Source of the DNA: Escherichia coli
GTDB lineage: Bacteria; Pseudomonadota; Gammaproteobacteria; Enterobacterales; Enterobacteriaceae
DNA length: 427 bases
Reading direction: 5' to 3' (one strand)
NCBI RefSeq assembly: GCF_003334405.1
Contig: NZ_QOWM01000065.1
The position numbers were made by a program, and so were the translations under genes. The notes beneath the pieces were generated by a model that saw only the letters and a list, made by a program, of their open reading frames with translations, ran no database searches and was not told the origin of the DNA. This document shows positions 1-427 of this stretch, piece by piece; position 1 is the first letter of the stretch, and each line of letters starts with the position of its first letter.

Positions 1-81
1 ACCATCACCGTTAACGCTGCTGGTAACGCGGAAAACACCGTCAAAAACATCGCATTTAACTATATTGTGAGGCTTGCATAA
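1..81 (+). CDS. stf: 3' end of a side tail fibre protein gene (5'-truncated by the window edge). Frame 1 reads [26 protein letters not shown] then stop at 79..81.
   Basis: Frame 1 is open from position 1 to TAA at 79..81. The C-terminal peptide ending ...[11 protein letters not shown] matches, from memory, the end of lambdoid side tail fibre proteins. A tail fibre assembly gene follows immediately downstream, which is the conserved stf-tfa order. The gene is absent from the ORF track only because it has no start inside the window. Confidence 0.8.
66..71 (+). promoter_or_regulatory. Shine-Dalgarno / ribosome-binding site for tfa (GTGAGG), located inside the last codons of the upstream tail fibre gene
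   Basis: The purine-rich GAGG core at 68..71 is 9 nt upstream of the ATG at 81, within the usual spacing for E. coli-type initiation. Called from sequence only. Confidence 0.55.
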
Positions 82-427
82 TGGCATTCAGAATGAGTGA
101 ACAACCACGGACCATAAAAATTTATAATCTGCTGGCCGGAACTAATGAATTTATTGGTGAAGGTGATGCATATATTCCGCCTCATACAGGTCTGCCAGCA
201 AACAGTACCGATATTGCACCGCCAGATATTCCGGCAGGCTTCGTGGCTGTTTTCAACAGTGATGAGGCATCGTGGCATCTCGTTGAAGATCATCGGGGTA
301 AAACGGTTTATGACGTAGCGTCAGGGGACGCGTTATTTATTTCTGAACTCGGTCCGTTACCGGAAAATGTTACCTGGTTATCGCCGGAAGGGGAGTTTCA
401 GAAGTGGAACGGCACAGCCTGGGTGAA
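81..427 (+). CDS. tfa: 5' part of a tail fibre assembly protein gene (3'-truncated; last complete codon ends at 425). N-terminal 115 aa: [115 protein letters not shown]
   Basis: ATG at 81..83 opens a frame with no stop to the window end. The N-terminus [51 protein letters not shown]... is recognisable from memory as the lambda Tfa family (lambda Tfa and the TfaE/TfaR/TfaQ-type paralogues of E. coli K-12 cryptic prophages). GAGG at 68..71 lies 9 nt upstream of the ATG. The gene is absent from the ORF track because its stop lies beyond the window. Confidence 0.9.

Follow-up and report, generated by a model that had tools for sequence, protein, structure and literature searches.

The window analysed here, a stretch of 427 bp, is 100% identical over its whole length (1-427) to a lambdoid prophage of E. 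coli Z0117EC0098 (locus L001), in which the gene order is J, lom, stf (1,023 codons, intact) and tfa. Phage lambda is 95.8% identical to the window, and matches to it were found in 4,441 of 5,426 complete E. coli genomes. The window covers the place where stf meets tfa in a side tail fibre module of lambda type, carried by a prophage in an E. coli chromosome. Its features are the following:

1-81, plus strand: 3' end of stf, comprising the last 26 codons and the TAA stop at 79-81; frame 1 is open over 1-78
67-72, plus strand: Shine-Dalgarno (SD) element for tfa, GTGAGG, with its core GAGG at 69-72; it doubles as the stf Val and Arg codons (GTG AGG)
79-83, plus strand: TAATG, a -1 overlap in which base A81 is common to the stf stop (79-81) and the tfa start ATG (81-83)
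81-427, plus strand: 5' part of tfa, its first 115 codons, in frame 3 and open to the window end; the full gene has 193 codons in L001
93-95, plus strand: second in-frame ATG, Met5 of Tfa, taken as an alternative start in the annotation of Salmonella phage SI7 and probably not the start here

A sequence-only reading of this DNA had named the upstream gene as a tail fibre gene and the downstream one as tfa, and both names were confirmed by profile and structure matches (Caudo_TAP, phrog_105, 5YVQ_B and 2XGF). Tfa matched Pfam Caudo_TAP (PF02413) over residues 72-192 with an i-Evalue of 1.4e-44, and phrog_105 ('tail fiber assembly') over residues 1-192 (1.8e-100), the latter alignment starting at residue 1; in its C-terminal part the protein shows homology to Mu Tfa (5YVQ_B, 9.9e-10). 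The C-terminal 230 residues of Stf matched the tip of T4 gp37 (2XGF_A) up to the last residue, with an E value of 2.4e-85 (query 71-300 aligned to chain 28-242), and the fibre protein also matched Pfam Collar (3.1e-12) and phrog_295, this last match reaching the profile end. In the prophage as in lambda, tfa lies directly downstream of the tail fibre gene on the same strand, a layout that was repeated in 15 other modules. Folding and trimerisation of the fibre are known to need Tfa, both for lambda Tfa and for Mu Tfa; Tfa is reported in mature Ur-lambda virions, it binds the fibre through its variable N-terminal domain, and for a related chaperone the stoichiometry of binding to its fibre is 3:3 (PMC7291167, PMC9608196).

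As judged from their arrangement, stf and tfa appear to form a single operon. A consensus scan of the plus strand over L001 5000-6900, which includes 1 kb upstream, found no sigma-70-like promoter. On the minus strand, a 77-codon ORF at window 60-293 lies antisense to the junction and to the 5' part of tfa; we found no evidence of its being a gene. The lambda annotation has no ORF opposite the stf/tfa junction, the nearest antisense ORF being orf206b, about 1.2 kb upstream in orf-401.

At 66-83 the window reads TGTGAGGCTTGCATAATG. The sequence-only reading had held that stop and start share one base at this place and that the SD of tfa lies inside the upstream coding sequence. On the first point direct reading and the public annotations agree, and the coordinates given were exact; the second is borne out by the position of GAGG within the Val-Arg codons and by conservation at the codon level (see below). 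In RefSeq, the stf CDS of the 100%-identical prophage ends at L001 6081, which corresponds to window 81, and the fibre end and the tfa start fall on one base; in the lambda RefSeq record, orf-314 likewise ends on the base where orf-194 (tfa) starts, base 21973. Annotations of tfa are present in the E. coli prophage L001, in lambda and in the lambda-derived OM418625, and the last of these also carries an RBS at the bases matching window 69-72. The spacing between GAGG and ATG 81 is 8 nt, and the duplex of the SD with the 16S 3' end was calculated at -5.6 kcal/mol, which makes it the sole site that strong in the 20 nt before ATG 81. We consider it nearly certain that tfa starts at ATG 81 using the in-gene GAGG as its SD. 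The stf/tfa overlap is an ordinary, already known feature: the arrangement had been called expected rather than novel, and rightly so, the same junction being already annotated in lambda.

A lone TAATG is not improbable, since after TAA the next two bases will be TG in about 1 case in 16. The commonest distances between co-directional E. coli genes are -4 and -1 (PMC10666635), and overlaps of these two kinds were counted at 6 of about 21 junctions of the lambda late operon, the others being M/L by 1 and A/W, W/B, Z/U and H/M by 4. What exceeds chance, when phages are compared, is the conservation of the overlap. Among 16 divergent fibre/tfa modules from GenBank phages, the one-base overlap was observed in lambda, in a P2-like phage (65% Tfa identity), in Klebsiella RCIP0098 (52%), in Yersinia GCS667 (43%) and in mEp043 (35%), and likewise in the modules of Bordetella IFTN9, Vibrio JSF39 and Salmonella SE4. 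Two of the 16 modules had a -4 overlap, and in P7 and L-413C the fibre and chaperone genes abut, at 0 and +3 nt respectively. The overlap thus recurs in modules whose Tfa is only 35 to 65% identical to that of the window. The 80 loci of close relatives collected from IMG/VR are silent on constraint, since their Tfa is 94 to 100% identical to the query; with a Yersinia-type Tfa as query, a single locus was found.

Because the Val-Arg codons that make up the SD belong to a motif conserved at the C-terminus, (I/L)-V-R-x-x-stop, the role of the SD could be assessed independently of annotation. IMG/VR was scanned for N-[IVM]-A-F-N-[YF]-x-V-R-x-x-stop with any Arg codon, a scan whose AGR:CGN ratio is no population estimate, and a second scan, for CGN Arg only, was complete. 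The sample consisted of 193 distinct contexts of 156 nt among the matches listed, with room to call the next gene, and an overlap was scored when an ORF of at least 100 codons started at -1 or -4. Among these listed matches, 144 of the 193 distinct contexts had the overlap. In all 144 of these, again among the matches listed, the Arg codon was AGG (131) or AGA (13) and never CGN, and the Val codon was GTG (130) or GTA (14), with GTT and GTC never encountered. The flanking codons, among the same listed matches, vary freely, with 9 forms of the preceding Ile/Leu codon and 10 of the codon that comes next. The overlap was absent from all 30 CGN contexts; these had instead an SD of their own downstream, or no tfa. 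The total absence of CGN is telling, since AGG to CGG is one synonymous change.

The contexts share kinship, and cluster counts approximate independence only. When the matches listed were grouped at 70% Tfa identity, all 46 overlapping clusters had both AGR and GTR, compared to 7 of 11 (AGR) and 8 of 11 (GTR) for the non-overlapping clusters (Fisher P = 8e-4 and P = 6e-3, respectively, for overlap versus codon). With clustering at 50% identity, AGR was present in all 11 overlapping clusters among the matches listed, and the 4 CGN clusters were all without an overlap. From this comparison, the SD within stf appears to be under selection exactly where tfa overlaps, and the comparative evidence lends real support to a functional in-gene SD. 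Part of the AGR signal may be ancestry, since invertible fibre cassettes that lack an overlapping tfa retain AGR as well. A rare-codon argument from this stf alone was tried and set aside as weak, 6 of its 30 Arg codons being AGR; it is the comparison of lineages that carries the argument.

At three loci (L001 8146-11744, L125 6944-8579 and L171 487-2621), a recombinase gene was observed beside 2 to 5 tandem and inverted fibre C-terminal cassettes. Each cassette has the shared fibre ending followed by a common AAACGTTGGTTTGGGGGAAGG-like sequence, and the groups resemble invertible tail fibre segments with several cassettes. The Arg codon of these cassettes is kept as AGG or AGA even where there is no overlapping tfa.

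Other lineages provide natural controls, in which the junction is solved differently. In T-even phages, gene 37 ends ...GTT CGT TTA GCA TAA; GGAG follows directly, then a GC-rich hairpin, then the ATG of gene 38, which lies 26 to 30 nt past the stop (L090 1171-1206; L093 1149-1180; also L245 and L267). Here a long distance separates the SD from the start, which the hairpin appears to shorten; it is another way of solving the junction. A lineage of 117-140 kb contigs (L246 7400-7560; also L251 and L252) shares this fibre end, in the form GTG CGT, followed by an 84-nt spacer with a hairpin of -21 kcal/mol and an SD of its own, GAGGG, 8 nt before a lambda-like tfa (MAFEMSD...). The N-terminal half of this tfa product resembles lambda Tfa, and its C-terminal half is unrelated, acidic and coiled-coil-like in appearance. 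In a third lineage, with the fibre ending IVRWG* (L248, L249, L250, L255, L260 and L263), the Arg codon is CGG or CGC, the Trp-Gly codons TGG GGA give a G-rich, SD-like run, and the downstream gene starts 4 nt past the stop; from these sequences, another codon pair seems to have taken over the SD.

A conserved SD implies initiation at this place and not dependence on upstream translation, since it serves independent initiation equally well. The best model for stf/tfa is, in our view, termination-reinitiation, with tfa starting at ATG 81 from the SD within stf, and we regard it as likely to be correct. A ribosome finishing stf would end at UAA with the AUG of tfa next to its P site; the SD would retain either the small subunit or the entire ribosome; and reinitiation on tfa would follow. 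Tfa output would in this way be tied to Stf output, as would suit a fibre-tip-binding chaperone which reportedly stays on the mature Ur-lambda virion. The sequence-only reading had suggested translational coupling, and this is a reasonable interpretation. The anatomy of stf/tfa is that of a coupled pair, with a co-directional -1 overlap and an SD in the upstream 3' end at working distance, and coupling is plausible since the -1 overlaps tested in E. coli are usually coupled. Coupling was demonstrated for 4 of 5 overlapping E. coli pairs, bioB/bioF being the exception, and removal of the SD cut reinitiation by 60 to 100% in 4 of 5 pairs (PMC6728339). For three native -1 pairs of E. coli, 80 to 100% of reinitiation was lost when the stop was moved 38 nt upstream, and genes for heteromeric complexes are enriched in short overlaps (PMC10666635). 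The searchable literature yielded no direct test of stf/tfa coupling. Translation of stf probably boosts that of tfa to a measurable degree; a near-absolute dependence of tfa on stf translation is rather doubtful. Partial rather than absolute coupling is expected, since with a moderate SD and unstructured local RNA some ribosomes probably load directly. In laboratory lambda, stf carries a frameshift, yet functional Tfa is supplied to T4 gene 38 mutants. If frameshifted laboratory lambda indeed supplies functional Tfa, then coupling is not absolute.

The alternative that survives best, which we nevertheless hold to be unlikely, is that tfa is translated independently: the same ATG and SD would be used by ribosomes arriving from solution, and the overlap would be mere compaction or a side effect of locating the SD in C-terminal codons that are fixed. 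In favour of this, the site is accessible (fold z = 0.09) and of moderate strength (-5.6 kcal/mol), and the genes bioB and bioF of E. coli overlap and yet are uncoupled (PMC6728339). The T-even phages and the lineage with the 84-nt spacer use an SD of their own for the homologous chaperone gene, so that fibre assembly does not in general depend on coupling. However, it is the overlap itself (-1 or -4), and not only the SD, that was kept in 46 clusters at 70% Tfa identity among the matches listed. Moreover, the four coupled pairs among the five E. coli overlaps tested include three -1 overlaps (PMC6728339, PMC10666635), and ribosomes elongating on stf would cross the SD site, hindering free loading.

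Coupling by unmasking, in which the start of tfa would be hidden in mRNA structure and opened by ribosomes reaching the end of stf, is in our opinion very improbable. The minimum-energy fold does pair the SD weakly (67-73 with 82-89), but the RNA of positions 31-130 folds at -11.9 kcal/mol against a mean of -12.1 kcal/mol for shuffled sequences, 101 of 200 shuffles being at least as stable; the absence of any match to Rfam families in the window at E <= 1 also counts against it. Further downstream, at window 318-343 in the tfa coding region, we observed a terminator-like hairpin, GCGTCAGGGGACGC then GTTATTTATT. Two terminator-like sites were found in the region compared to 1.6 expected from shuffles, which is not above expectation.

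Just as improbable is a true tfa start at ATG 93-95, which would leave 11 nt between the genes, as in the SI7 annotation. The lambda-type subfamily does conserve Met5 (MAFRM, MTFKM, MTFEM), but SD pairing before ATG 93 is only -2.2 kcal/mol or weaker, and distant Tfa subfamilies without Met5 still start overlapping the stop. The alignment of phrog_105 from residue 1, and the SD-compatible codons kept at the right distance from ATG 81, also speak against the later start. A Stf-Tfa fusion by -1 frameshift was rejected, there being a stop in frame 3 at 57-59 and no slippery heptamer in 60-78.

A more far-reaching version of the termination-reinitiation model would make of the junction a conserved, portable joint. 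The Val-Arg codons would be dual-use, serving both as protein motif and as RBS, and together with the overlap they would allow fibre-tip/chaperone cassettes to be swapped between unrelated phages, with every finished Stf chain strictly governing Tfa synthesis in cis and in quantity, and with Tfa acting preferentially on fibre chains of the same mRNA. We consider this extended proposal, taken as a whole, quite improbable.

Among known systems, the closest is the stf (orf-314)/tfa (orf-194) junction of lambda, where the 41 bases around the junction are identical to the window and the overlap, the GAGG, the fibre C-terminus and the Tfa N-terminus are the same. It differs in that stf of laboratory lambda is split into orf-401 and orf-314, whereas that of the window's prophage is intact, with 1,023 codons. 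The E. coli pairs hyfH-hyfI, ydbH-ynbE and menD-menH (PMC6728339, PMC10666635) resemble stf/tfa in their one-base overlap, their SD located in the upstream gene, their use of the host translation machinery and their complex-forming products. Their coupling was shown by reporters, whereas stf/tfa is known from sequence and its SD is fixed in a conserved Val-Arg motif. The T-even gene 37/38 pair shares with stf/tfa a homologous fibre C-terminus and a chaperone/adhesin gene placed directly after it; in contrast, it has no overlap, a spacer of 26 to 30 nt with GGAG and a GC-rich hairpin, and CGT rather than AGG for Arg. This layout points to independent initiation of gene 38. In P2 (H/G), P1/P7 and Mu (S/U), the chaperone gene again directly follows the fibre gene and the C-terminal domains of Tfa are homologous, but the fibre C-termini are unrelated (...WYNVAQV*) and the two genes stand end to end, at 0 or +3 nt; the fibre-chaperone pair of P1/P7 and of Mu is furthermore located inside an invertible segment.

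Taken alone, the junction carries little weight: lambda annotations have included it for decades, and few kinds of gene joint in E. coli and its phages are commoner than a one-base overlap with an internal SD. What is added here is the comparative evidence for a functional in-gene SD, together with a prediction for recoding the end of stf. On the basis of the natural variation of the SD codons, recoding the last stf codons (AGG to CGT, GTG to GTT), or moving the stop, is predicted to result in less Tfa and less fibre assembly. This would be of practical use for the engineering of side tail fibres, for example when lambda is retargeted or fibre tips are swapped.

Two further observations concern the matches to the window. 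The GenBank entry MW057783.1, 'Campylobacter phage CJLB-4' (48,361 bp, host Campylobacter jejuni), matches it at 21813-22239 with 95.8% identity, the same as lambda. The match lies at lambda-like coordinates; what is listed here with a different host looks to be a lambda genome, perhaps from a sequencing control or a contamination. In E. coli, partial matches that begin at window 126 or 174 had suggested mosaic breakpoints inside tfa; this possibility was discarded, the matches being truncated remnants with either an IS3 element or an integrase pseudogene beside them. Such tfa remnants without a 5' end, beginning at window 174 or 126 (L273 901-1275; L274 904-1434), are present in some E. coli genomes and on a 439-kb plasmid. 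No fibre gene precedes them, their neighbour is an integrase pseudogene or an IS3 element, and the plasmid remnant is still annotated as an intact tail fibre assembly protein of 176 codons.
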